DNA from: Candidatus Latescibacterota bacterium
GTDB lineage: Bacteria > Latescibacterota > UBA2968 > GCA-2709665
DNA: 64,000 nt
Assembly: GCA_965219455.1 (NCBI GenBank)
Contig: OZ244744.1
Location: forward strand, 5,696,001 to 5,760,000
Reading direction: 5' to 3'
The notes below the pieces were generated by a model. That model was not told the DNA's origin and searched no databases. It saw only the letters and a program-made list of their open reading frames with translations. Each line of letters opens with the position of its first letter. Within the stretch, counting starts at the first letter, position 1. This document shows positions 1,995 through 47,777 of this stretch, piece by piece. The position numbers were made by a program, and so were the translations under genes.

Positions 1995-2594
1995 TCATTC
2001 ACCGGTCGAACGGGGCAAAAACTCCGCCTCACCGATGTGGCAGGTTGCGCAGGTGGCCGGTACTCCGTCTGACGTGATCAACGATCCCTCGTAGTGGTCC
2101 ATCATATATTTGGCCATCAGCTTGTGTTTGGTCGGCTGCTCGGGCGCGAGCCGTCCGTCTTCGCGCCTGACGTGGCAGAAGTCGCAGTTTACCCCCAGCG
2201 CTTTCTCGATGGCTTTCATCTTCCGAAATATCTCCCGCCGGGGCAGCCGCCCAGAAAGGTTGGACGGCCTGGCGTCCTCGAGGTCCCGAGGAATGAACCG
2301 GGCTCTGCCCTGGTGGCAGAACATGCAGTCCAGCGTCTTCCCTTCTGCTGTATTCAGCCCACCCACAAAGTGAACTTTCATATGGATGGCTGTTTGCTTG
2401 AACAATGAAGGCGCTTCGAAATCGGGTTTTCCATCTGGTCTCCTTGCAGTATGACAATGAGTACACCGTACCCCGAGAGACCTGGCAATTCGCTTCATGT
2501 TCTCTTCGCTTGTGTCCAGCACGTGGCCCCGATCGGCATGGGCGGCAACTGCCGAAACACCCATTCCAATCGCAATCAGCAGCAATTTCGTCAA
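1995..2594 (-). CDS. Exported tetraheme c-type cytochrome resembling the reaction-centre cytochrome (PufC-like) diheme repeat
   Basis: Four CxxCH motifs (CTHCH, CMFCH, CDFCH, CATCH) in two duplicated M..I...LGV.CxxCH...M...CxxCH units. Signal peptide ends AAHA. TTG start at 2594 follows GGAGGT. Confidence 0.8.
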   Translation of the reverse strand: MTKLLLIAIGMGVSAVAAHADRGHVLDTSEENMKRIARSLGVRCTHCHTARRPDGKPDFEAPSLFKQTAIHMKVHFVGGLNTAEGKTLDCMFCHQGRARFIPRDLEDARPSNLSGRLPRREIFRKMKAIEKALGVNCDFCHVRREDGRLAPEQPTKHKLMAKYMMDHYEGSLITSDGVPATCATCHIGEAEFLPRSTGE

Positions 2595-2725
2595 AACACC
2601 TCCACAAAGAAATCCCCGGCTATCGCCAGAGCAACCGCACCACATCGCTCACCTTCATCCACTTGAATAACCGCTTTCGCGATCGCTGTATTTTCACGCG
2701 CGGCGCTGGTGTGTGTCATTGTGCC

Positions 2726-4090
2726 TCAGTTCACTTTTCCGGCAACGATAGAGCGCCCGTCGACACCACCGGGAACATCCAGACCGACGGCGTCGAAGAG
2801 CGTTGGAAACACGTCGATCAGTCGAACCTTTTGTTGTGATAGATCCGCCTTGCGATTGATGAAAAACATCGCGTCCGAGAATGTATGGGTGCCATTTACA
2901 GGACCGCGCTCCATCAATTCCCCGCTCTCAAACCCGCCCTTCAAATCGTAGCCTTCCGCCGGCATGGCCACCAGATCCGGCGCCTGTTCAAAGGCATCGC
3001 CTGCATAGAGTTCCTCGCGCTTGAAAATCCTATGGATCACCGGTTCACCCGTTACAGGATTTCGGATTTCCATCAGACCGCTGGCGATGTCCTGTCTCAG
3101 CGCCTCGTATTCCGCTCCCGGTTCCACGCATCCACCACGCTCCCGCCCACGTAAACAAAGGTAAAAACGCCCAGGCAGGAGCGAATAACATCTCGTGCCG
3201 GGCGCCAGGTCGCGAAGCCCCCTGGCCGTTCTACCCAGGAAGCGCAAATAACCAGCCTGGCGCAGCCAGTAATTCAATTGTACTTCATACTTCAGCTTGC
3301 AGAATCCATGATCGGATATTATCATCAGCAGGACATCATCGTTAAGCCGGTCCGCCACGTCACCGATTGCACGGTCCACCCGAGCATAAAACCGGTGGAA
3401 CCACGGCAGATACGCCTCGCTGCCGTCTTCAACCAGTCCCCACAAAAAATGGTGTAACCTGTCCGTTTCTATAACGTGGGCGACAAACAGGTCCCATGGC
3501 TCCTGGTCCAGGTAGTGGAACATCGCGTCGAACCGCCGTTCCATGGCCTGGAAGACGTCGTCCAGGAATCGCTCCCTATCCTTGCGGGCCAGCCACGCGT
3601 CGATGTCAATCCGATATCCCATTGAAGACAGTTGACGTGCAACCGCGGCGGGATAGGTTCCCCTGTTCAGATCCGGCGCCAGAAATCCGGAAATCAGAAT
3701 GCCGTTCACCGCCCTGGGTGGATAGGTGGTCGGCACGCCCATGGAAAAGACACGCCTGCCCATCCCGCTGAAAATCTCCGTCCAGGTTCTGACACGCATC
3801 GTTCTGGACGAGGGGATGTACATTTCATGAGTCTTCGGCACACGATCGATGAAGCCATAGATATTGTGCCTGCCGGGATTGCAGCCGGTTACCAGCGACG
3901 CCCAGGCCACCGACGATACGGTAGGCAAGACCGACTCCATGCGCGCCAGGCTTCCGCTACGCATCAAGGCGGCGAGATTCGGCATGCTGCCGTCGGAAAC
4001 TAGGCGTTTTATCAAACTGCAGGGGGTTCCATCCAGGCCAATAATCATGGCCCGTGAAGGCCCATCTCGAGGGAGGTTAACCGAAATCAT
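2726..4090 (-). CDS. Alkaline-phosphatase-superfamily protein (type I phosphodiesterase/nucleotide pyrophosphatase)
   Basis: IIGLDG, PTVSSVAWASLVTG.NPG.H.IYGF, ETDRLHHFLW, ISDHGF and C-terminal GTH motifs. Confidence 0.85.
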   Translation of the reverse strand: MISVNLPRDGPSRAMIIGLDGTPCSLIKRLVSDGSMPNLAALMRSGSLARMESVLPTVSSVAWASLVTGCNPGRHNIYGFIDRVPKTHEMYIPSSRTMRVRTWTEIFSGMGRRVFSMGVPTTYPPRAVNGILISGFLAPDLNRGTYPAAVARQLSSMGYRIDIDAWLARKDRERFLDDVFQAMERRFDAMFHYLDQEPWDLFVAHVIETDRLHHFLWGLVEDGSEAYLPWFHRFYARVDRAIGDVADRLNDDVLLMIISDHGFCKLKYEVQLNYWLRQAGYLRFLGRTARGLRDLAPGTRCYSLLPGRFYLCLRGRERGGCVEPGAEYEALRQDIASGLMEIRNPVTGEPVIHRIFKREELYAGDAFEQAPDLVAMPAEGYDLKGGFESGELMERGPVNGTHTFSDAMFFINRKADLSQQKVRLIDVFPTLFDAVGLDVPGGVDGRSIVAGKVN

Positions 4091-4167: not shown

Positions 4168-4245
4168 TGGGGTGAGTGAGGGGACTTGAACCCCCGACCT
4201 CCTGGGCCACAACCAGGCGCTCTAACCATCTGAGCTACACCCACC
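4168..4245 (-). tRNA. tRNA-His (GUG)
   Basis: Cloverleaf with G-1:C73 pair, anticodon arm CCTGG-TTGTGGC-CCAGG, TTCAAGT T-loop and encoded CCA. Confidence 0.97.
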
Positions 4246-4261
4246 ACAAGTTGTCACAAAA

Positions 4262-4335
<74 letters not shown>

Positions 4336-4408: not shown

Positions 4409-4486
4409 GCGAAAACAGTGCGGCGCCGGGTTATGTAAAGATCTGTAAATTTGGGCTCTATGTAGTCTCGAGAAACAAAATCCGCC

Positions 4487-4515
4487 TTGCTATCCGGACG
4501 CATGTGAGGTATATT
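4487..4515 (+). promoter_or_regulatory. sigma70-type promoter for the barrel/propeller operon
   Basis: TTGCTA-17 nt-TATATT, ending 62 nt upstream of ATG 4578. Confidence 0.6.
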
Positions 4516-4577
4516 TCAGCGCGAGAAACCCAGGCTCTCGCCTCACGTCCACATCTTACGGATCGGGGAAATCCCGC

Positions 4578-5549
4578 ATGCGACCCTTCTCAGCCCTCTA
4601 TCTGTTCCTGTTCCTTGTAGCGCTAATTTTCGCGGCGCCCGCCGCCCATGCTCAAGGTGGCGTCAGCTGACGGCGCCCCGTGCTCCCGGGCGGGAGCTTG
4701 ATGAAGAATAGTTCGTCAGTAAAGGATCAGCTGAAGCTCAGCGTTCATTACGATTACGAATTCTTATCAGACCCACACTACGGTTCCCGCGCCATACCGA
4801 ACGTTAATCGCGAGCGAACGGATAATGCCACGACCACCGTTTTTGCCTCGCACGGCGTTACCGAACGCATCGGCCTGACGCTCGCCCTGCCTTTCCGTTC
4901 AGTAACCAACGAAAAGGTGCTGTTGCGCGGACAGAATCACAACCAGTACGAGGGTGGGAAGTATGTTCGGCATGCTTCCGGACTGGGCGATATTGTGGTT
5001 ATGTTGAATTACGCGGCACCCATTGCAGTGGGCTTTCCCGGTTTGAATTTCGGCATCGGATTGAAGCTGGCAAACGGATCCACCAATGACAAAGACCAAT
5101 ACGGCGAACGTTTCTCTGACAATCTGCAGATCGGGTCGGGAAGCGTGGACCCGATTCTCGCGTTGAATGCATTCCATCGTCTAAAAAACCTGACGGTCTC
5201 GGGCGGTGTCTTCACGCGCATAACGACGAGGCAAAACATCTACGGCTACAAATATGGAAACGAACTGCACGCCACCTTCTCCGTTGAGTACGCTAACGAA
5301 GGCTTGTTCTACGGCGGGCTGAGTCTGAAAAACCTGATCACCTCACGGGACCGTTACCAGTTCGGTCAGATAACAAGAGAACGGGGAGGGAGGTGGTTGT
5401 ATCTTTCGCCTGAATTGGGGGTCAACATCCTGGACGATCTAAGCGTTGAATTCCGTCTGCCCATTGTCGTATTTCAAAATGTGAATGAGAGCCAGCTGAC
5501 GTCGGGCTATCTGATTGAGCTGAGCACGTCATACGTCTTCTCGCTTTAG
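4578..5549 (+). CDS. Outer-membrane beta-barrel (transporter/MetA-phenol-pathway-like family), candidate selenoprotein with TGA at codon 31
   Basis: ATG 4578 gives signal peptide MRPFSALYLFLFLVALIFAAPAAHA, then QGGVS, then in-frame TGA 4668-4670, then the 289-aa ORF with GLGDI, LQIGSGSVD, YKYGN motifs and a terminal SYVF strand. A SECIS-like hairpin follows the TGA. Confidence 0.75.
4671..4697 (+). promoter_or_regulatory. Candidate bacterial SECIS element
   Basis: 11 nt after the UGA lies stem GCUCCC/GGGAGC (4682-4697) with a G-led loop GGGC. Confidence 0.65.
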
Positions 5550-5559
5550 GCGATCCGGC

Positions 5560-6636
5560 ATGCACCATACAGGAAAAACACACGGCCGGTTCGTTTTTTT
5601 TACTCTGTGCATGTTCCTTTGTGTGTTGGGCTGTTCGCTTTATCTGGACGACGAAGAGCCGGATCATTTCTACGAATTCAAAGATTTCGAAATCCTGAAA
5701 CTCGGCGTGAATATCTCGGATATGGTCATGGATCCGAACCAGCCATTTCTCTATCTCGCAGACTATGGAAACAACCGGATTCTCCGCATCCACATTGGCA
5801 AGCAGATGGTCGTTGAAGGGAACCTCCAGGTGGGTTCCCACCCCATCGACCTCGACATTACACCGGACCAACGCCATCTGGTGGTGGGTTTAAACGGTGA
5901 ATCGAACCTGAAAATAATCGACCTGAGTACATTCGCCATTGTGAAGACCGTTCCCTTCTCACTGAACGATATCTCCCACATCGTCTGCGGAACCGACTCA
6001 ATTGTCTATGTATCTTCGCTGGACGAACCGCTGCTGATTGCCGTATCCATTGTGGACGACCTCGAGACCAGCGGGAATGTGCGTTCCGGCACCCTTCTCA
6101 TGAATCACCGCGACCGTAAGCTCTTCGTTGCTGCCAGGAACAACGTCCTGAAATACGACGCTTCAGGTCATTTTCCAACAACCGCGACCACTTCGACCCG
6201 TTTCAGTTTTTCAGCCAGGATAAACGATTTCGTGATGGGCCCTCTTAACGACCATCTCTACCTGGGTCTGGCGGATCCGCTGGACCGTGACCACGTAAAA
6301 GATCTTTGGTCATTCAGCACCGACAATCTGACGCTGACGGGCAAATACGAAATCAAGTCTCCTGCTCTGGGGCTTGCGCTGAGCCGCGACGGCCGGCGTT
6401 TGTTCGTTGCACCTACAGACGCGGATGAAGCGGGTGTTTTCATCGTTGAATTCGATACTCAAACCAAGCTGGAGAAAAACTATTTCCTTGCGGCGGGAAA
6501 CCTCAAGGAACGGGGCATTGCCATAGACAACAACGATCAATACCTTTATGTGGCGGTGTTTACGCCCGGCGACGACGATACCTTCGAACCCTACAATGTC
6601 AATTCGTACGATCTTCAGCGAATCAGAGTCGACTGA
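5560..6636 (+). CDS. YncE/YVTN-type beta-propeller lipoprotein
   Basis: Hydrophobic N-terminus with a VLGC lipobox. Repeated blades: VGSHPIDLDITPDQRHLVV, GLALSRDGRRLFV, GIAIDNNDQYLYV. Starts 10 nt after the barrel gene. Confidence 0.75.
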   Translation: MHHTGKTHGRFVFFTLCMFLCVLGCSLYLDDEEPDHFYEFKDFEILKLGVNISDMVMDPNQPFLYLADYGNNRILRIHIGKQMVVEGNLQVGSHPIDLDITPDQRHLVVGLNGESNLKIIDLSTFAIVKTVPFSLNDISHIVCGTDSIVYVSSLDEPLLIAVSIVDDLETSGNVRSGTLLMNHRDRKLFVAARNNVLKYDASGHFPTTATTSTRFSFSARINDFVMGPLNDHLYLGLADPLDRDHVKDLWSFSTDNLTLTGKYEIKSPALGLALSRDGRRLFVAPTDADEAGVFIVEFDTQTKLEKNYFLAAGNLKERGIAIDNNDQYLYVAVFTPGDDDTFEPYNVNSYDLQRIRVD

Positions 6637-13630: not shown

Positions 13631-13914
13631 GCCACGTCTCCTGGGAACCGCGTGTTTACAAAAGCGTTAAAGATCCAGGCACCGGAAGACGCCGGAATAT
13701 ACGGGTTTTTTTTTCCCACGGAAGCCCTTTCTCATCACATCACAGGATCCGGGATCTCGATCCTTCTTCTTAACTCACTGTTTCTGTTTGTCTTATTTAT
13801 GGATCTTCCGGTTCGGATTTTCCCTTGATCTTTAACACGGGGTTCGGTATTATTAGTCTAACTCTTAACCTCTACGTGTGGTCCCGCCCCGGAATAAGAC
13901 TTTCCAATTCACGT

Positions 13915-16900
13915 ATGCACACCCCATACATCTCCAAAGCTTCACGAAGGGGATTGACCCTCCCGCTGCCTACGGTCATCGCTTGCATTCTCAGCACGTG
14001 TCTTCTGGCCGATTCGGATACCCTCCGCGCCGAACCGGGTATTCAACTCTCTTTCGGAAAGACACCCGCACACGTCTTCCATCGTTCTCCCGTCAAGCTG
14101 ACTTATTCCAGTTCCACTGCCTTTCAGCCGCTTTTTCGGCAACGGCGCCAGTTCACCCAGACGGTCACCCGCCTGCTGAACACGGATACCGGAACGCTGA
14201 TGGTTTATCGAGCCGCCGGCGACGTGGTCCATGGCATACCAGCGGTCATCACCCTGAAAAGCCTATCCGCTTACAAATTCGATGCTGATTTTGGTCGCGT
14301 GGCCGCAGAAAAACTCAGCGTGCCGGCACAAGCTCGCCGGGGCGTGGGTAGTGCACTGGTGGATATCAAGATACCCGTCAAAGTACCCAAGGCGCTCAGC
14401 GTAATTGCCGGCGAAGGCGACACCAATATCAAGATTACCGGATCCCGGCGCATCGATCTTTCCGGCGTGAATACCACCGTGGGTGGACAGGCCCAGACCG
14501 TTCGCGCACGGGCAGCCGAAGGCTTTACCGTCAATTTCGAGCAGCAATCCCAACTGAACGTGCAGGGCACCATCGGTGACCGCATTACGCTGAACCTCCA
14601 ACAGGACAGCCGCGGTCAGACCGATATCAGCGAATCGCTTCAATTTCGTTACGACGGAGACGAAGACGACATTGTTCAAGAAATTGAAGCGGGCAGGACC
14701 TCCCTCAGCCTGCCCGGCACCCGCCTGGTTGGCTTCAGTTCATCCAACCGAAGCGGGCTTTTCGGAATCAAGGGCCGCGGACGCCTGGGCGGATTGGACG
14801 TGACGGTGGTCACCAGCCACGACAGAGGCGCCAGCAACCGGAAATCCTTCCAGGGACAGGCAGAGGAGATCGCACATAGAATACGAGACTACGATTACGA
14901 AGAGAATCTCTACTTTTTTCTCGACCACGTGTATCGCCAGAGTTTTCCGGACGAACCCACCCGGCCGGATCTGGTGGACATTGGCTCTGTCCGTGTTTTC
15001 CTGAACGACTTCAACGATCGCAACGACATCGAGGAGCGCGCCGGACGCGGGGTTGCCTTTGCTTTCTGGACCGCCGGACCCATTCCAGAGCCCGACGCCA
15101 GCGTCAATGGCGAGCAGAGCGGGGGCATTGAAGAGGGGTTTTTCCACGAACTGGACCGCTCCGAGTTTCTGGTCGACGCCAGAGGATATCTGATCATGAC
15201 CCGTCGGAATATTCCACGAGGTCACACCCTTGCGGTCGCATACCGGACGGCCGATGGTCGGGTTTTCGGCGACCTGAATTTTATCCAGAACCCCTCAAAT
15301 CCGGATGCCAAGATCAGACTGAAACTCATTCACGCCCGACAGCAACGGCCGGAATTTTCAACGTGGGATCTGGCGTGGCGAAACGTGTATTACCTGGGAA
15401 GCCGCGACATCGAGCCGGAGGGCTTTGAACTGGAGGTCCTCAGAGATGTGGCCGGTCAGGAGGCGGTGGACAACCAGCGTGGCACGCCGTACCTCCGGAT
15501 CTTCGCCCTGGACAGACACACCAACGGCTCCTCGGAATCCTCGCCTCCGGACAACCTCATCGATATCGACGGCGGCACAAATCTGCCCGGACTTAATCTA
15601 CGCACAGGCCACCTGATTTTTCACGATCTGGAGCCATTTGGTGAACGCGGTGTCGGTGCAGAGGCGCTGTCAGACGACGCCCGGGTGCCCGAAATCTACA
15701 ACACCACCAATAACACCACACGCGCCCAAAAAGGACAATATTTCCTGCGCATCCGATCCAAGAGCAGGGCCACCACATTCAACCTGGGTTTTGGCCTGAT
15801 CGAGAACAGCGAAGAGGTTCTGCTGAACAACCGTCGCCTGACCCGTGGGCGGGACTACAACATCAAATATCAAATCGGCTCAATAGAGTTGGTTGGAGAG
15901 GCTGCAGACCTTGCGGCCGACCCTTCCGCCAACCTGGTGATAAATTACGGATCCAAGAGCCAGTTTGGTTTCGGAGGCGGGCAGAAAAGCCTTGTTGGCC
16001 TTCGGGCGGAACACCCGTTCAAGGACAACGTTTCGATGGTGGGAATAAGCCTGCTGTACGGTAGCGAAAGCGCCAACACTCAACGGATTCGCGTGGGCGA
16101 CGAGCCGGCCCGGACCCTGATCTGGGATATGAACGGCAGGTTCCGTTTCAAGCCACAGATCCTCACCGACTTCGTCAACAAGCTGCCGTTTATCTCCACA
16201 CAGGCGCCCTCGGCGTTTAACGTCGACATGGAAATCGCGCAGAGCCTGCCCAACCCGAATACGAAAAATGTAGCGTACATTGATGATTTTGAAGGCGCCG
16301 AAAGCAGAAAATCGTTTTCCACGTTTAAATTCGACTGGTCCGCCGGCAGCTCCCCAAACCGGAACGGTCTCCAACTTTCGATGCCAAGGGGACGCCTTAC
16401 CTGGTACAATCTGGTGGACCGAGACCGCATTTCCGTCTACGACATACAGCCTGGGCGAGACGATATTCCCGCGGAAAGCAGCATCGTCGACGATGTTCTC
16501 AGTATCCGATTCGAACCCCATCGCACCAACGGTTTTCCTGAGACCTCACGGAACCCCGCCGGAGGCCTCCCGGAAAACTCCTGGGCGGGCGTTACGAGGT
16601 GCCTGTTTGGCATGGACTTCTCACGTTCCAAGTTTATCGAACTGTGGATCAGGGGGAATTCGGGACGGCTCCATATCGATCTCGGTGAAATCTCCGAGCG
16701 GGCCGATCTGCTGCTCGACCACGCAACGTTTAATGCACCGCCGCCCGGTCAATTTCGCACCGAAGACCGCCCCCTGCCCGGGTTTCCCACGGGCGACGAC
16801 GTTGCCATTCCGGAAGAGGACATCGGCCTGGACGGCCTGACCGACGCCCAGGAAGATTCGGTCTTCCGCCTGATCTTCCCCGGCGTTACCGTGCCCGACG

Positions 16901-19900
16901 ACCCGTCGGACGACAACTTCAAGGACGTGGACCTCAACCAGGAGAACCTTCGCTTCCGGTACCCGTCGGGTGTGAACGGCACCCAGAACAACAATCCCGA
17001 GCGGGAACAGAGGCCGGATTCCGAAGACCTGAACCAGAACGGCATCCTGGACAGCCGTAACCATTACCTCCACTATAACGTCGATCTGGCATCCGATCGG
17101 GGCTGGAATGCGATGACGGGCGATTACGACGGACCTTCCATGCTCGTCGTGGGCAGCCAGTCGGATCCTTCCGACCGTCCCTGGAGGTTGTTGCGCATCC
17201 CATTGCGCGGCAACAATGCCCCGCGCACCGTCGAAGGCAATCCGGACACGACCTTCGCCGGCGTATTTGATTTTGCGAGAATCTGGATCGAACACGACGA
17301 CACGACCTCGCTCGACATCTACACACTTGCCGTGGTAGGAAGCGACTGGCTCGAAGATGAAACCCCCGAAGGACAGCAATCGGGAGACTTCAGAGTGGCC
17401 ACCATCGGTACCGACAACCAGGTCTATGAACTTCCGCCGGGCCTCGAACGGGAGACCAACCCGCAAACGGGAAGACAACTCCTCGAACGGTCACTCGTTC
17501 TCCGATTTGAAGACCTCTTTCCCGGCGAGAGCCTGACAGCTTCACGAACCTTTACGGAGGGGCAAGATTACACGCGATACGGTCTGATGACCATGTTCGT
17601 CCACGGCGGCAATCCCACGCAACCCACTTACGATGCCAATTTTCCCGCCGGACCCGATTCAACATCCGGAAGCTTCAGCCCGGTTGAACTGTTCGTAAAA
17701 TTTTCACCCATCGGTGAAGATACGCTCAACTTCTACGAGTACAGGAAGCCCATCTACCGGGGCTGGTCGCCAGAAACCAATACATTCAAAATCGAACTCG
17801 ATGTCCTTTCGCAGATCAAAGGAAAACTCACGGACCTGAAGGCCACGGGCCAGGCGTCCGACACCCTGCGCCTTTCCCTTCCAACAGACGAGATCCTGGC
17901 CGACTATGACAGAGAAGCCAATCAGATACGCGCAGACGTACACGGCGCCATATATACCGTGCGGGGCAACCCCGCGCTTTCAAAAATCAAGTCGTTCGTG
18001 ATCGGCGTCAGCAACGGGGGAGAATTTCTTCTGGAGGGAGAAAACGAGATCTGGCTGGATGAACTTCGTGTCGATCGAATCCGAAAGAAAAATGCCGTAT
18101 CCATGTTATTGAACGTACAGTCCACGCTGGCAAATCTGGGCAACGTGACCCTGAACCTGGAACGCCGGAGTGGCGACTTCCAGGATCTTCAGGGGCGCTC
18201 CACGGGCAATTCGACGACACAAATCAGCCTGAATGGTTCGCTGAATCTGAACAAATTCCTGCCCGATCAGTGGAACACCGCCATTCCGATGCGATACAAT
18301 TATCTCCGCAACGGTTCCGTTCCCCGTATTCGACAGGGTTCGGATATCGTCTTGACTGATCAGCAAAAATCCAAGGAGAGCGCGGTCCGCGCTTCGTCCC
18401 GGTTCAATGTCTCCATGCGCAAACGTCCGGCAACGCAGAACCCTCGCTGGATCGCCCGGCTCTTTTTCGACCGGATCAATGCGTCTCTGAACTTCCTGAC
18501 CAACAGCGCGGTCAGCGGCGCCATCACGCGGCGCCGGTCCAACAACGATCAGAATTTCAACGGTAGCTTCAGCTATGACGTCAGCTGGCCCACACAGCAG
18601 GGATTGAAAATCCTCAATTGGGTTCCGCGTTTGGGTTCCTATTTTCAGGAAGTCCAATTCTTCTACCTTCCGTCAACCCTTCGCTACAACCTGCGTTTTG
18701 ATCGTAAGAGCATTAACAGACGTTCCTTTTCCGCCGTTGAAGGCGACACGTCGGACGTCATCGCTGTATTGAACGAAACCTTCAACCTTAACGAGAGTTT
18801 CGTTGTAAAACTGACACCCTTTCGAAGCGTGAACGCCAACTATTCCCTCGCGGTGAACCGTGATCTCCGGAATTCATTCGATTTCTCCAAGCTACAGTTC
18901 GGCCGCGAAACCACGCGAAGTCAGAAAGTGGGCTTCAACTTCACACCTCGCGTTTCCAAGTGGCTCAGCATCAACACCGACTACTCTTCGGGCTATCGTG
19001 AGCGGCTTGAAACCGGGAGCCAGCGGATTTCCATTGGCAACGAACGCAGGGGTCTCACCGTGGGCAACAGCAGCCGTGTTGGCGCCCGATTCAGCCTGAA
19101 CCTTCCAGGTCTTTTTCGCCCTCTGGCCCGTCCATCGAAAGGCCAGGCCGGGTTTTCGGTAATCCGACTTATCGGCAGGCTGGGCGGAGCGCTGGATGCC
19201 GTACAGGTCAACGCCTTTCGCACTCGCCAATTTAATCTTTTTGGCCTGAGGCGTCGACCTGCGCTAAGATTTCAACTTGGCCTCACCGACACCACGATGT
19301 CGCCTCGTTACAGATCCGGGGGCGTTACACGCGTAAATACCAGAAACATCTCCGACAATGCCGATATCAAAGGCGCTGTCCGCCTGCCTGCCGGATTTCG
19401 AGGCTCTTCCGGGTTAAATTTTAACCATACCAGAAGTTTTGGCAACGCCAATAAGGAAGAACAGAAACTGGAGTTTCCCAATTTTTCAGCGCAGTGGAGG
19501 GGACTTGGGGAATTACCTGTCTTAAGGTGGATCTTCACCAGTTCCAATCTCAGCTTTAATTACAAGTCAAATCGTATCTTTCGGGGCGACGGCGGCCTGG
19601 GTGATAACGTCCTGACAAACGATACACGCAGAACGGAGTTCCGGCCCCTGATACGGTGGCAGGCCCGATGGAAGAACAAAATGTCAACGAATTTCAGTAC
19701 AAACCGCAGCCGACAGAACGACCTTCGTTACCAGCGCAACGTGGCCACCGACAGCACCGTCACACAGCCGACGCTGGAGGAGCGGCTGATTGGAACGACC
19801 ATAACCGAAACGTCTCAATTCACGGCATCCCTCAGATACTCACTGAGTTCGAAATTCTTCAGTAAGATGCAGAGCAACCTCGACCTCACCGTCGAGTACG

Positions 19901-20139
19901 GCACTAATAACAGTCTGAAAAAGGAAATTCCCCGAAGCGCGGAAGCCATAGAAGCCGCTGAGGCCGTTGTTCGCCAAAGAGATGATCGCTGGCACGCCAG
20001 TCTGGCCGGGCAATATCAGTTCAGCAGCAAATTCACCGGTGGTACCCGTTTCAGGCACGAGAATCGGAAGGACAAGCTCCGCGACCTGAACAACAGGGTA
20101 TGGGAATTCAAGGTATGGGGAGAGATTCGCTTTAACTGA
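13915..20139 (+). CDS. sprA: SprA-like giant outer-membrane beta-barrel (T9SS translocon homologue), about 2070 aa; start uncertain (13825 or 13915)
   Basis: YDGDEDDIVQEIEAG, GLFGIKG, LAWRNVYYLG, AYIDDFEG, RGRLTWYN, IDLGEISE, DSEDLNQNG, FYEYR and EIWLDELR motifs; long amphipathic C-terminal strands ending GEIRFN. Confidence 0.85.
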   Translation: MHTPYISKASRRGLTLPLPTVIACILSTCLLADSDTLRAEPGIQLSFGKTPAHVFHRSPVKLTYSSSTAFQPLFRQRRQFTQTVTRLLNTDTGTLMVYRAAGDVVHGIPAVITLKSLSAYKFDADFGRVAAEKLSVPAQARRGVGSALVDIKIPVKVPKALSVIAGEGDTNIKITGSRRIDLSGVNTTVGGQAQTVRARAAEGFTVNFEQQSQLNVQGTIGDRITLNLQQDSRGQTDISESLQFRYDGDEDDIVQEIEAGRTSLSLPGTRLVGFSSSNRSGLFGIKGRGRLGGLDVTVVTSHDRGASNRKSFQGQAEEIAHRIRDYDYEENLYFFLDHVYRQSFPDEPTRPDLVDIGSVRVFLNDFNDRNDIEERAGRGVAFAFWTAGPIPEPDASVNGEQSGGIEEGFFHELDRSEFLVDARGYLIMTRRNIPRGHTLAVAYRTADGRVFGDLNFIQNPSNPDAKIRLKLIHARQQRPEFSTWDLAWRNVYYLGSRDIEPEGFELEVLRDVAGQEAVDNQRGTPYLRIFALDRHTNGSSESSPPDNLIDIDGGTNLPGLNLRTGHLIFHDLEPFGERGVGAEALSDDARVPEIYNTTNNTTRAQKGQYFLRIRSKSRATTFNLGFGLIENSEEVLLNNRRLTRGRDYNIKYQIGSIELVGEAADLAADPSANLVINYGSKSQFGFGGGQKSLVGLRAEHPFKDNVSMVGISLLYGSESANTQRIRVGDEPARTLIWDMNGRFRFKPQILTDFVNKLPFISTQAPSAFNVDMEIAQSLPNPNTKNVAYIDDFEGAESRKSFSTFKFDWSAGSSPNRNGLQLSMPRGRLTWYNLVDRDRISVYDIQPGRDDIPAESSIVDDVLSIRFEPHRTNGFPETSRNPAGGLPENSWAGVTRCLFGMDFSRSKFIELWIRGNSGRLHIDLGEISERADLLLDHATFNAPPPGQFRTEDRPLPGFPTGDDVAIPEEDIGLDGLTDAQEDSVFRLIFPGVTVPDDPSDDNFKDVDLNQENLRFRYPSGVNGTQNNNPEREQRPDSEDLNQNGILDSRNHYLHYNVDLASDRGWNAMTGDYDGPSMLVVGSQSDPSDRPWRLLRIPLRGNNAPRTVEGNPDTTFAGVFDFARIWIEHDDTTSLDIYTLAVVGSDWLEDETPEGQQSGDFRVATIGTDNQVYELPPGLERETNPQTGRQLLERSLVLRFEDLFPGESLTASRTFTEGQDYTRYGLMTMFVHGGNPTQPTYDANFPAGPDSTSGSFSPVELFVKFSPIGEDTLNFYEYRKPIYRGWSPETNTFKIELDVLSQIKGKLTDLKATGQASDTLRLSLPTDEILADYDREANQIRADVHGAIYTVRGNPALSKIKSFVIGVSNGGEFLLEGENEIWLDELRVDRIRKKNAVSMLLNVQSTLANLGNVTLNLERRSGDFQDLQGRSTGNSTTQISLNGSLNLNKFLPDQWNTAIPMRYNYLRNGSVPRIRQGSDIVLTDQQKSKESAVRASSRFNVSMRKRPATQNPRWIARLFFDRINASLNFLTNSAVSGAITRRRSNNDQNFNGSFSYDVSWPTQQGLKILNWVPRLGSYFQEVQFFYLPSTLRYNLRFDRKSINRRSFSAVEGDTSDVIAVLNETFNLNESFVVKLTPFRSVNANYSLAVNRDLRNSFDFSKLQFGRETTRSQKVGFNFTPRVSKWLSINTDYSSGYRERLETGSQRISIGNERRGLTVGNSSRVGARFSLNLPGLFRPLARPSKGQAGFSVIRLIGRLGGALDAVQVNAFRTRQFNLFGLRRRPALRFQLGLTDTTMSPRYRSGGVTRVNTRNISDNADIKGAVRLPAGFRGSSGLNFNHTRSFGNANKEEQKLEFPNFSAQWRGLGELPVLRWIFTSSNLSFNYKSNRIFRGDGGLGDNVLTNDTRRTEFRPLIRWQARWKNKMSTNFSTNRSRQNDLRYQRNVATDSTVTQPTLEERLIGTTITETSQFTASLRYSLSSKFFSKMQSNLDLTVEYGTNNSLKKEIPRSAEAIEAAEAVVRQRDDRWHASLAGQYQFSSKFTGGTRFRHENRKDKLRDLNNRVWEFKVWGEIRFN

Positions 20140-45688: not shown

Positions 45689-46273
45689 ATGAACATTACC
45701 GTAACCGAAGCCGCGCAGAAGGAGGTTGTCAACCTGATCCGGAATCAGGAGTCGGCCATCGTTGGCGTTCGTGTCAAGGCAGAGGCTGTATCGCCTCTGC
45801 AGGCCAACTACCGACTCGCTTTTGTCGCCAGTGGACAGGAAGACGAAGAAGACGACGTCACCCCGTTCGATGGGTTCAATGTCTACATAGACACGGAAAG
45901 CGCCCCGTATGCCCAGGACATCATCCTGGACTTTGTGGACGGCCTGATGGGTAGAGGTTTCAAGATAGAAAACCCCAACAAGGTACCCCCTCACCTGAAA
46001 GGCACCACTGCCGAGAAGATCCAGAACATCATCGACGAGAAGATCAACCCCAGCGTGGCCATGCACGGCGGACATATCTCACTGATCGACGTAAGAGACA
46101 ACAAGGCATACATCCAGTTCGGGGGCGGATGCCAGGGTTGCGGCATGGTGGACGTGACGCTCAAGCAGGGGGTCGAAGTCCTCATCAAGGAGGGCGTGCC
46201 CGAAGTCGAAGAAATCCTCGACGTGACCGAACACGCGGATGGCTCAAACCCCTACTACCAGCCCTCGAAATAA
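45689..46273 (+). CDS. nfuA: NfuA-type Fe-S carrier (degenerate A-type domain plus Nfu domain)
   Basis: ITVTEAA, GFKIENPN, INP.VAMHGG and GGGCQGCG motifs. Confidence 0.9.
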   Translation: MNITVTEAAQKEVVNLIRNQESAIVGVRVKAEAVSPLQANYRLAFVASGQEDEEDDVTPFDGFNVYIDTESAPYAQDIILDFVDGLMGRGFKIENPNKVPPHLKGTTAEKIQNIIDEKINPSVAMHGGHISLIDVRDNKAYIQFGGGCQGCGMVDVTLKQGVEVLIKEGVPEVEEILDVTEHADGSNPYYQPSK

Positions 46274-46349
46274 CAAGAGTATACACCAATCGGCAGACTT
46301 CCGGGGGGTGCCCCCGTGTCTGCCGTATTGTTTTCAGGACAAACAACCG

Positions 46350-47777
46350 TTGCCTACCATCTCCCGATCGCGTCCGTTCAAAGTCGTGCTGGTGTCCACC
46401 TACGAATTGGGTCGTCAGCCGTTCGGTCTGGCCTCGCCGGCCGGATGGCTACGTAGAGCTGGTTTCGACGTTGTCCAAGCGGACGTTTCAATAGACGACT
46501 TTCCTGACAAAGCCGCTCGCGACGCCGATCTGGTGGCATTTTACGTGCCCATGCATACCGCGACGCGGCTTGCCGTACCGCTTGCCTTAAGAACCCGCGA
46601 ACAGAATGCCGACGCTCACCTGTGTTTCTATGGGCTTTACGCTTCCGTTAACGAATCCTTCCTGCGAAGCCTGGGCGCACAGACCATACTCGGCGGTGAA
46701 TTCGAAAACGGACTGCTTCAACTCTGCAACCGCCTCCGGGGGACTTCAGGCACTACGGGAAACCAGGACGAAACCGTCGTTTCCCTCGACAGACAGCGGT
46801 TTCTTCCGCCCGACAGGACAGGCCTTCCGGACCTGTCCCTTTACGCGCGACTATCCACGGGTGACGGGCATCTGAAAACCGTCGGCTATACAGAGGCCAG
46901 CCGAGGCTGCAAACACCTCTGTCGCCACTGCCCCGTCGTACCCGTGTACGGGGGCAGATTCCGGATCGTGCAACCGGAGATTGTGCTGGACGACATCGTG
47001 AAACAGGTTGCAGCGGGGGCCGGTCATATCACGTTTGGTGATCCGGACTTCTTCAACGGCATCGGCCACGCAATGCCACTTGTCGAAAAGCTCCACGCGG
47101 AATTTCCCGACGTGACCTACGACATCACCGTCAAGATCGAACATCTGCTGAGGTATAGTCGCTATCTGACCGTCCTCAGAGATACCGGGTGCGCACTTGT
47201 CACGACTGCCGTAGAGTCTCTCGACGACCGCGTCCTCACGCTGTTGGACAAGGGCCATACGGTCGCCGACTTTTTCGAGGTCGTACACCTCTTCCGAAGA
47301 CACGGACTCGTCATGAATCCGACGTTTATCCCGTTTACGCCCTGGATCACCGTGGCGGGGTATGCCGGCTTCCTGGACACCCTCGCCGACCTGAACCTGA
47401 TCGAGCATGTCTCCCCCGTTCAACTCACCATCCGGCTGCTCATCCCCAGGGGATCAAAGCTTCTGGACCTTGCCCAGGTTCGCGACTCGGTGGGTCCGTT
47501 CACACCCGAAGCCCTGTCTTACCCGTGGGCGCATCCGGACGTCCGTTTGGACCGTCTCCAACGCGAACTTACCCGGTTGGTCACCCGGTGTCAGAATCGG
47601 GACGCCACCCGACGAGAGATCTTCCACGGAATCCGGTCGTATGTCCACGGCCTGATAGGCCGCCCGGCCCCAGTGACAGATTCCGACGCGGACTCGACCC
47701 GCCAATCCCTTCCCCGCCTGACCGAGCCGTGGTATTGCTGAGCGGAGCCAACCGAAGAGCAGTTCGCTCTTGTCTAA
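46350..47777 (+). CDS. CUAEP-tail radical SAM selenoprotein with N-terminal B12-binding-like domain; TGA 47739-47741 read as Sec; start uncertain
   Basis: STYELGRQP N-terminus and ASRGCKHLCRHCP (CxxxCxxC). Readthrough gives PRLTEPWYC-U-AEPTEEQFALV then TAA, the family tail. A SECIS-like hairpin follows the TGA. Confidence 0.9.
47742..47771 (+). promoter_or_regulatory. Candidate bacterial SECIS element
   Basis: 13 nt after the UGA lies stem AAGAGC/GCUCUU (47755-47771) with loop AGUUC (G at position 2, then U). Confidence 0.75.

Follow-up and report, generated by a model that had tools for sequence, protein, structure and literature searches.

Does an in-frame TGA codon in the gene of an outer-membrane beta-barrel end a reading frame, or is it read as selenocysteine (Sec)? 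The question is raised by positions 4578-5549 (+) of a stretch of 64,000 nucleotides, referred to as the window in the following, from the genome of a Candidatus Latescibacterota bacterium (GCA_965219455.1, contig OZ244744.1, positions 5,696,001 to 5,760,000 of the forward strand; the genome is a single contig of 5.84 Mb). An original prediction, made from the sequence alone, proposed that this region encodes a barrel protein that is exported, carries Sec as residue 6 of its mature form, represents a new selenoprotein and is shortened by standard gene callers. This core claim is supported by the conservation of the TGA, the presence of the Sec machinery, independent sequence reads and a structural model, and we consider it very probable that the region is one gene for a genuine Sec-containing outer-membrane barrel.

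A reading frame with one conserved TGA

The frame starts at an in-frame ATG (4578-4580) and stays open, through a single TGA (4668-4670), up to the stop codon TAG (5547-5549); when the TGA is taken as Sec, it specifies a precursor of 323 amino acids. The UGA corresponds to residue 31 of the precursor and residue 6 of the mature protein. Precursor residues 1-25 (MRPFSALYLFLFLVALIFAAPAAHA; 4578-4652) have the appearance of a signal peptide and end in AHA, a signal-peptidase-I-type site, after which come QGGVS, the TGA and RRPVLPGG. The resulting N-terminal motif of the mature protein, QGGVS-U-RRPVLPGG (4653-4694), is near-invariant in orthologues, in paralogues and in other phyla. In the table-11 listing of open reading frames (ORFs) the barrel begins at the GTG at 4680 (289 amino acids), and the first 34 codons, with the signal peptide, are lost. 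The ATG, the TGA and the end of the barrel frame were all found at the positions given in the original prediction, which had also rightly described the start of the listed ORF at 4680 without a signal peptide and the leader ending in AHA that is encoded from the upstream ATG. The mature barrel has zero Cys residues, and the Sec is its sole Cys-like residue (Sec or Cys).

The TGA is a shared character of the gene. A six-frame search of 60 relatives recovered same-genus orthologues (80-86% identity) with exactly one in-frame TGA each in 14 of 14 genomes, and in the same 14 genomes, as well as in that of the window, a paralogue that also carries one TGA (about 53-54% identity). The paralogue of the window's own genome (G000:C1:407393-408340 (-), loci L047 / L063) keeps the motif GVS-U-RRPVLPGG, and the nucleotide match between the window and the paralogue contig is limited to 4659-4696. 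TGA-bearing copies were also found in the two genomes that represent another genus of the same family, and the motif and the position of the TGA are common to all 33 copies obtained from relatives. A broader scan with one genome per species recovered 67 loci, of which 61, sharing 34-86% identity with the query, have TGA as the aligned codon; the consensus around the site is near-invariant (AxA|Q-G-G-(V/I)-S-U-R-R-P-x-L-P-G-G), and the flanking codons show synonymous changes by which the protein sequence is retained. The six loci that do not show the TGA comprise one with Cys (L127), one with Pro (L125) and four in which the N-terminus is unaligned (L123 and L128-L130). The original prediction had expected homologues with TGA or Cys at this codon and with conserved flanks and hairpin; the TGA form with flanks and hairpin was indeed kept in the 61 loci, whereas a close Cys form was not obtained. 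The genomes that carry the TGA form are labelled as Latescibacterota, candidate division KSB1, Calditrichaceae, Fidelibacterota / Neomarinimicrobiota / Marinimicrobia, 'FCB group bacterium' and Poribacteria, and the family extends over about 47 species-level genomes (a manual tally from contig names, in which two copies per genome were assumed for the genus of the window).

The sequence upstream of the TGA also behaves as a translated one. The frame is open there; a Met start followed by a hydrophobic leader was found in 55 of the 61 TGA-bearing loci (using a crude test), and at the predicted cleavage site position -1 is Ala in 53 and position +1 is Gln in 54 of them. The leader is divergent among the loci yet keeps its hydrophobicity, as would be expected for a translated signal peptide.

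Independent reads were sought among Logan contigs over the region 4450-5650, all or part of which is contained in runs of nine studies. One run, possibly the source of the assembly itself, matches the whole region without differences. A 291-nt contig from another study (4625-4915) differs at 4814 and 4841 and retains the TGA at 4668-4670, the position for which the original prediction had considered a read error. Two metatranscriptomic libraries, both labelled sponge metagenome, contributed further contigs: one of 206 nt that is identical over 4565-4770 and on which the start codon, the TGA and the opening codons of the barrel stand together without a break, and one that is identical to the gene over 4848-5053; the cover by these contigs is confined to the two segments, its lack elsewhere has no bearing on expression, and DNA carry-over is possible. 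Judged from these comparisons, the TGA is neither an error nor a nonsense mutation.

Decoding of the TGA

A hairpin with a 6-bp stem and a G-led loop, starting 11 nt past the TGA as the original prediction had described, is present at 4682-4697 (G4682-CTCCC, loop GGGC, GGGAG-C4697; stem pairs G-C, C-G, U-A, C-G, C-G and C-G), with a loop that begins 17 nt beyond the UGA. By way of reference, the minimal selenocysteine insertion sequence (SECIS) of Escherichia coli fdhF is a stem-loop of 17 nt that is located 11 nt after the UGA. Comparative folding of 57 distinct sequences, aligned without gaps, showed standard pairs in 93.6% of the cells for the six proposed pairs, as compared to 27-70% when the 3' partners were slid by 1-3 columns, and the observed pairing and covariation scores were reached by none of 500 shuffles. 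The pair 30-39, in which the third base of the Leu codon meets that of the second Gly codon, occurs as five pair types (CG 34, UA 19, UG 2, AU 1, GC 1), and this covariation bears out the conservation of the hairpin that had been anticipated. The pair 27-42, likewise between third codon positions, was found as GC 16, AU 13, GU 5 and UA 1 and was unpaired in 22 sequences, and loop column 34 is an invariant G. The SECIS within the selD gene of the same genome (AGUCC-GGUC-GGACU) has its loop 17 nt past the UGA and agrees with the barrel hairpin in spacing and loop type. In its location 3' of the UGA, its loop G, its spacing and its covariation, the putative element has the properties that are expected of a bacterial SECIS stem-loop.

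The genome holds the complete machinery, selA/selB/selC/selD, that the original prediction presupposed: selA (562 bits), selB (366.6 bits) and the gene for tRNA-Sec (73.6 bits) adjoin each other at 4.374-4.378 Mb, and selD (359.8 bits) is located at G000:C1:3407174-3408097 (-) (locus L023), all above the curated cut-offs. The selD gene itself carries an in-frame TGA, in the context ARTCG-U-AAKVSP. Among ten other genomes that carry the family, selA exceeded the cut-off in eight, was partial at a contig end in one and was not found in the remaining one. A second Sec signal, which had been reported around 47739, proved to be real: the TGA at 47738-47740 lies in the CUAEP tail of the ORF at 46239-47777 (+), which encodes a B12/radical-SAM protein ending in WYC-U-AEPTEEQFALV and scores 609 bits on NF040546 (cut-off 500). 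This is a second selenoprotein gene, of a known family (CUAEP/CCAEP-tail radical SAM (seleno)protein), and table-11 calling drops the last 12 residues of its product. TGA also serves as a stop codon. It ends 17 of the 33 non-overlapping ORFs of at least 250 amino acids in the window (TAA 10, TAG 6), because of which a code with TGA as sense throughout is excluded, and in several members of the family the frame runs on no further than another TGA, located where the protein is expected to end.

Database proteins give an ambiguous picture of the site at first sight. A search of the protein database yielded 67 relatives, which are mostly 276-289 amino acids long and begin after the TGA; nine proteins span the Sec site, with Ser in two full-length relatives (P0014, P0020) and Trp in seven (P0027, P0029, P0031, P0032, P0033, P0075, P0170). 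P0033 and the translation of locus L105 agree in 320 of the 324 residues that align, and P0033 has a W both at the Sec TGA and at the true stop TGA; P0027 likewise has a W opposite both the Sec-site TGA and the true stop TGA of locus L102. A TGG codon at the Sec site was absent from all loci examined. Because the true stop TGA is rendered as W as well, and because the nearest loci carry TGA, the W forms are an artefact of gene calls made under a TGA=W code. Trp in close homologues, which the original prediction had named as a sign of a nonsense mutation or pseudogene, is therefore apparent in seven proteins but traceable to the way in which these were called. Database entries of this kind can mislead comparisons of Sec, Cys and Trp.

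How else might the TGA be understood? It could close a leader peptide of 30 codons, with GTG 4680 or ATG 4701 as a separate start for the barrel and the hairpin acting as a regulatory element. The table-11 ORF calls give exactly such a layout, most database proteins begin after the TGA (282-289 amino acids, 85-89% of the query), and the 3' arm of the hairpin, GGGAG, is similar to a ribosome-binding site and lies 4-5 nt before ATG 4701. A barrel starting at 4680 or 4701 would however have no signal peptide, whereas the supposed leader is itself a signal peptide with a conserved AxA|Q site; moreover, the peptide is seamless across the TGA (GVS-U-RRP) in 61 loci, and the downstream Met is not conserved, as exemplified by marinimicrobial members (GGSLLKYS / GGSLLEYN) that have no in-frame start near the hairpin. 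Two separate frames are thus very unlikely indeed. A nonsense mutation, a pseudogene lesion or an assembly error would be the default view of an in-frame stop, and it agrees with a hairpin that is not significant in the single sequence, but the TGA is shared by all 14 congeners, by the paralogue, by 61 of the 67 loci across phyla and by contigs from other studies, and its flanks have undergone synonymous changes; this reading is already refuted by the comparative data, and we leave it virtually no probability. It could also be supposed that a suppressor or a variant code causes the UGA to be decoded as Trp, Cys or Gly, or that Sec is incorporated rarely and most ribosomes stop. The W at the site in seven public proteins points that way, the Ser and Pro variants indicate that the column tolerates other residues, and the support for Sec is comparative. 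The W forms, on the other hand, are a product of TGA=W calling, TGA is the commonest stop codon in the window, the Sec machinery is complete, and the hairpin has the spacing and the loop of the selD SECIS, so that we hold this explanation to be very unlikely as well.

Fold, gene partners and distant relatives

The protein matches PF13557 (Phenol_MetA_deg) over residues 112-294 (E 1.1e-5, 26.1 bits, cut-off 22). An AlphaFold2 model of the mature protein, for which the TGA was read as Cys and an alignment of 28 rows was used, reached a mean predicted local distance difference test (pLDDT) score of 86.2 and a predicted TM score of 0.84. In this model the mature protein (4653-5546) consists of an 11-residue extension with the Sec, a plug segment (with a helix at residues 13-18) and a beta-barrel of 12 strands, which is predicted to hold the N-terminal segment in its lumen, and a plugged channel is what the original prediction had envisaged. 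The best solved match was Pput2725 (4rl8_C; VIA-align Z 24.9, root-mean-square deviation 2.5 A, 255 aligned residues, 11% identity), with model residues 12..296 aligned to residues 1..268 of the chain, followed by FapF (5o65_A, Z 23.2) and then by the translocator domains of autotransporters; a search of the PDB sequences with the family profile gave no matches at E <= 1. FapF (5O65) is similarly a plugged 12-stranded barrel (Foldseek E 1.6e-12, TM 0.66; 13-14% identity), but the annotated neighbours of the Sec barrel loci include no fap-type genes, and hence no fap operon, and we know of no Sec in FapF.

The likeness to the COG4313 protein Pput2725 (from P. putida F1, PDB 4RL8) comprises the 12 strands, the segment in the lumen that precedes strand 1 and the match to PF13557. 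Its crystal structure shows the N-terminal ~14 residues within the barrel lumen, entering from the periplasmic side (PMC4493636, in the part of the paper that was available). Because residue 1 of Pput2725 aligns to residue 12 of the model, the Sec is placed on an extension of 11 residues (QGGVSURRPVL) ahead of the plug. The Sec barrel differs from Pput2725 by this extra N-terminal extension and by its partners, a redoxin and a beta-propeller lipoprotein, and genes for the catabolism of aromatic or hydrophobic substrates were not found among the annotated neighbours of the Sec barrel loci.

A beta-propeller gene is the immediate downstream neighbour of the barrel gene, in the same orientation, at 45 of the 61 TGA-bearing loci, including the window (5560-6636 (+)), and the lipobox Cys is kept in all 45 propellers, followed by S-L-Y-x-D-(D/E)-x-x-P; in the window it is Cys25, followed by SLYLDDEEPD. 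This acidic stretch resembles the surface-export signal of Bacteroidota lipoproteins, which we take as a lead only. The window's propeller was modelled by AlphaFold2 with a pLDDT of 88.9 as a seven-bladed propeller of the YVTN type, with 1l0q and YncE as the nearest folds; the fold search returned generic YVTN/WD40 propellers only and offered no functional lead. A thioredoxin-fold gene of the ResA/TlpA/DsbE-like type is found directly upstream in 24 of the 61 loci, with the motif WATWCxxC in 23 of the 24 and WSIYCSVC in one, and an FG-GAP/ASPIC protein with a type-9-secretion sorting domain is encoded nearby in 29 of the 61. The paralogue of the window's genome is part of the gene order NHL-repeat propeller, WATWCxxC redoxin, barrel and SAM methyltransferase, and according to the genome scan the same order is found at the paralogue loci of the genus. 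The neighbours of the window copy are genes for a phosphodiesterase, two tRNAs, the beta-propeller lipoprotein and endonuclease III.

Two more specific roles of the Sec were considered in this connection and set aside. A selenenyl-sulfide tether to the propeller was given up as the leading idea because the lipobox Cys is the only Cys conserved in all 45 propellers. The idea that the Sec stands in for a lipobox Cys (G-V-S-U) disagrees with the conserved AxA|Q site five residues earlier, with the Ser and Pro variants and, in view of the lipobox consensus, with the Gly at position -3.

An exhaustive search of 1.84 billion representatives retrieved 462 relatives at E <= 0.001, and only 5 of these at E <= 1e-30. 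Cys motifs were counted in P0069-P0216 among the matches listed (148 proteins, 107 of them with at least 290 amino acids and a Met start): C-x0-4-C follows directly upon the signal peptide in 88 of the 107 full-length distant representatives (e.g. AQTCCSGGVP, AQSCSCGGPP, SCGSxxCP), and the median number of Cys elsewhere is 0. A Pfam match is absent in six of seven tested twin-Cys barrels. A profile comparison of the twin-Cys barrels with the Sec clade shows that the two are homologous (hhalign probability 99.96, E 4e-39, 276 columns). They are alike in having Cys-like residues just after the signal peptide and none elsewhere, and in having a lipoprotein gene directly downstream, but the twin-Cys barrels have two Cys and not one Sec, in another column, and their partner is DUF3179 and not the propeller.

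Some of the twin-Cys barrels are encoded next to metal-related genes. Mer-type clusters were found at L127 (1451-4951: MerR, a MerT-HMA fusion and the barrel) and at L128 (3812-7938: the barrel, a MerT-HMA fusion and a MerA-like pyridine-nucleotide disulfide oxidoreductase). The QTCCSGGVP branch, for which 80 metagenome loci were collected (L131-L210), has a DUF3179 lipoprotein gene in 73 of the 80 loci, with 76 copies downstream on the same strand at a median gap of 3 nt. These loci also hold HMA-domain genes (11 + 5), CusB-like genes (7), thioredoxin-like genes (7) and TonB receptors (10); a MerT-HMA query matched 7 of the 80, possibly by its HMA domain alone. The DUF3179 proteins have an invariant Cys in YCPLTG, and DUF3179 is itself listed as a selenoprotein family (PMC13188914, a review of which excerpts were available). 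A homology between the propeller and DUF3179 was tried and rejected (hhalign probability 0.2). An outer-membrane barrel within mer-type clusters is perhaps worth a study of its own.

Possible function and place among selenoproteins

The following course of events would account for these observations. SelB would read the hairpin as a minimal bacterial SECIS, by which Sec would be inserted at mature residue 6; upon export and cleavage by signal peptidase the Sec would reside on the 11-residue extension ahead of the plug, where the single selenolate could bind or react with a thiophilic cargo in the channel (a soft metal, a metalloid, or a sulfur or selenium species). The co-encoded TlpA/ResA-like CxxC redoxin could keep the Sec reduced or re-reduce it, and the barrel would work jointly with the co-encoded beta-propeller lipoprotein. 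We propose this function because of the plugged channel, the single selenolate before the plug, the CxxC partner and the Cys-tipped relatives beside metal genes. In the original prediction the plug was suggested to bind or reduce a cargo (a soft metal, a metalloid or a thiol); such a role would agree with the fold and with the neighbouring genes, and we put forward the specific mechanism, a selenolate at the plug that deals with thiophilic cargo, tentatively, as a possibility that falls somewhat short of being probable. The use of Sec as a soft-metal ligand would have a counterpart in the Sec forms of thiophilic-metal transporters that are listed in the excerpted review, e.g. the putative mercuric transport protein PF02411 and the SO_0444 Cu/Zn efflux transporter (PMC13188914), which differ from the barrel in being inner-membrane proteins of unrelated folds.

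The main functional rival is a purely redox role, in which the Sec is a catalytic or relay residue (peroxidase-like, or in thiol:selenol exchange with the TlpA-like redoxin, its substrates being those of the envelope or lipids) and not a ligand of cargo. Such a role would suit the WATWCxxC redoxin that is encoded upstream in 24 of the 61 loci and beside the paralogue, and redox proteins constitute the majority of bacterial selenoproteins according to the same excerpts (PMC13188914). The mature barrel lacks a resolving Cys, however, its fold is that of a channel and not of an enzyme, Ser and Pro variants occur at the Sec column, and the distant twin-Cys relatives adjoin metal-handling genes. 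We therefore regard a purely redox role as rather unlikely, and add that the redox and the cargo readings are not mutually exclusive.

Several observations weigh against the picture of an exported Sec barrel that handles thiophilic cargo. The support for Sec in the protein is all comparative. The hairpin of the window, folded as a single sequence, does not stand out from shuffled versions (z = -1.29; 25 of the 200 shuffles fold at least as well); its stem is short, and four of its six pairs are invariant or nearly so and thereby weakly informative, because the conserved peptide also fixes these bases. The hairpin was kept as a SECIS candidate because it is supported by the comparative data and not by the fold of the single copy. 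No close Cys homologue at the Sec column was found among the relatives searched, and the forms with Ser and Pro imply that a Cys-like residue at this column is not indispensable; the genomes of the Pro and Cys forms have selA, so that these forms are not explained by a loss of Sec decoding. Model residues 1-20 have pLDDT values of 58-66, and the placement of the Sec and of the plug is accordingly of low confidence. The two Cys of the twin-Cys barrels precede the aligned GG by 3 and 2 residues, the U by 7, and so occupy other columns than the Sec. No mer genes were found in the 63 loci L064-L126, which include the Sec clade (tblastn with MerT-HMA, MerA-like and MerR), and because of this the link to metals is drawn from distant relatives only. 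Finally, there is no redoxin gene beside the window's own copy of the barrel.

With these points taken into account, one gene for an exported Sec barrel is the explanation that we consider best and likely to hold, with the mechanism as its more tentative part. A wider hypothesis may be formulated as follows: barrel, redoxin and propeller would form an unrecognised outer-membrane system in which the selenolate captures a thiophilic element (Hg, Cu or some further soft metal, or else sulfur or selenium in one of their species) and hands it over, the Sec clade would be the selenium branch of a large and undescribed superfamily of twin-Cys-tipped barrels, and some of the twin-Cys barrels would represent the missing outer-membrane entry step of mer-type or other heavy-metal clusters. 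We consider this extension speculative and, taken in full, unlikely.

Full-text literature searches, with supplementary candidate lists outside their scope, recovered no description of the family as a selenoprotein. PF13557, phenol and COG4313 have zero occurrences in a 2026 review (PMC13188914), its table of selenoproteins included, as far as it was available, and the family is not described in the available portions of a 2022 review (PMC9312934), the Haft preprint (10.1101/2022.07.06.499078) and the GOS study (PMC2398784); it may have been listed before as an unnamed candidate in large-scale predictions. A scan of NCBIfam 20.0 (hmmscan, E <= 1) gave TIGR04200 only, at E 0.1, and no match to NF041027, NF049945 or GOS_B/GOS_C (NF041374, NF045500). 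Outer-membrane barrels with Sec are known in the GSU2204-family MtrB/PioB barrel (NF041027) and the FCYXU TonB receptor (NF049945), both taken from the excerpts of PMC13188914, but the present barrel differs from these in family, in barrel size, in the position of the Sec (the mature N-terminus) and in the taxa concerned. In the GOS study each new selenoprotein family had Cys homologues (PMC2398784, in the portion at hand), and the present family has perhaps been overlooked by searches for Sec/Cys pairs because no Cys form fills the Sec position. We therefore regard it as a new family within the bacterial selenoproteins, which is unusual for its lack of Cys forms and for the predicted place of its Sec, on the tip of the plug of a channel in the outer membrane.

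If the proposal is true, a widespread selenoprotein family is added for several little-studied phyla, with abundant ocean lineages included, and a channel protein exported to the outer membrane is found to bear a Sec where its plug ends. Public annotation systematically shortens the protein or mistranslates its Sec as W. Beyond its own members, the family draws attention to twin-Cys-tipped barrels, a far larger group as yet without a name, which are paired with lipoproteins and sometimes located inside heavy-metal clusters, and it makes the route of thiophilic metals or chalcogens across the outer membrane accessible to experimental testing.

As regards the surroundings of the gene, a sigma-70 promoter had been predicted just upstream. 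A match to the consensus exists (TTGCTA-17-TATATT, 4487-4515 (+)), but it is weak (9 of 12 consensus positions); the region has 4 promoter-like matches, as compared to 1.8 +/- 1.4 in shuffled sequences, and the match is no evidence of function. The genes for tRNA-His(GTG) and tRNA-Arg(TCT) (4168-4335 (-)) separate the barrel gene from that of the phosphodiesterase (2726-4090 (-)), and the barrel gene therefore begins its own transcription unit. Further away, the window contains an ORF of 216 amino acids at 1995-2645 (-) that resembles a multihaem cytochrome c and is weakly matched by the MtrC/MtrF domain and cytochrome c7, and a very long ORF of 2104 amino acids at 13825-20139 (+).

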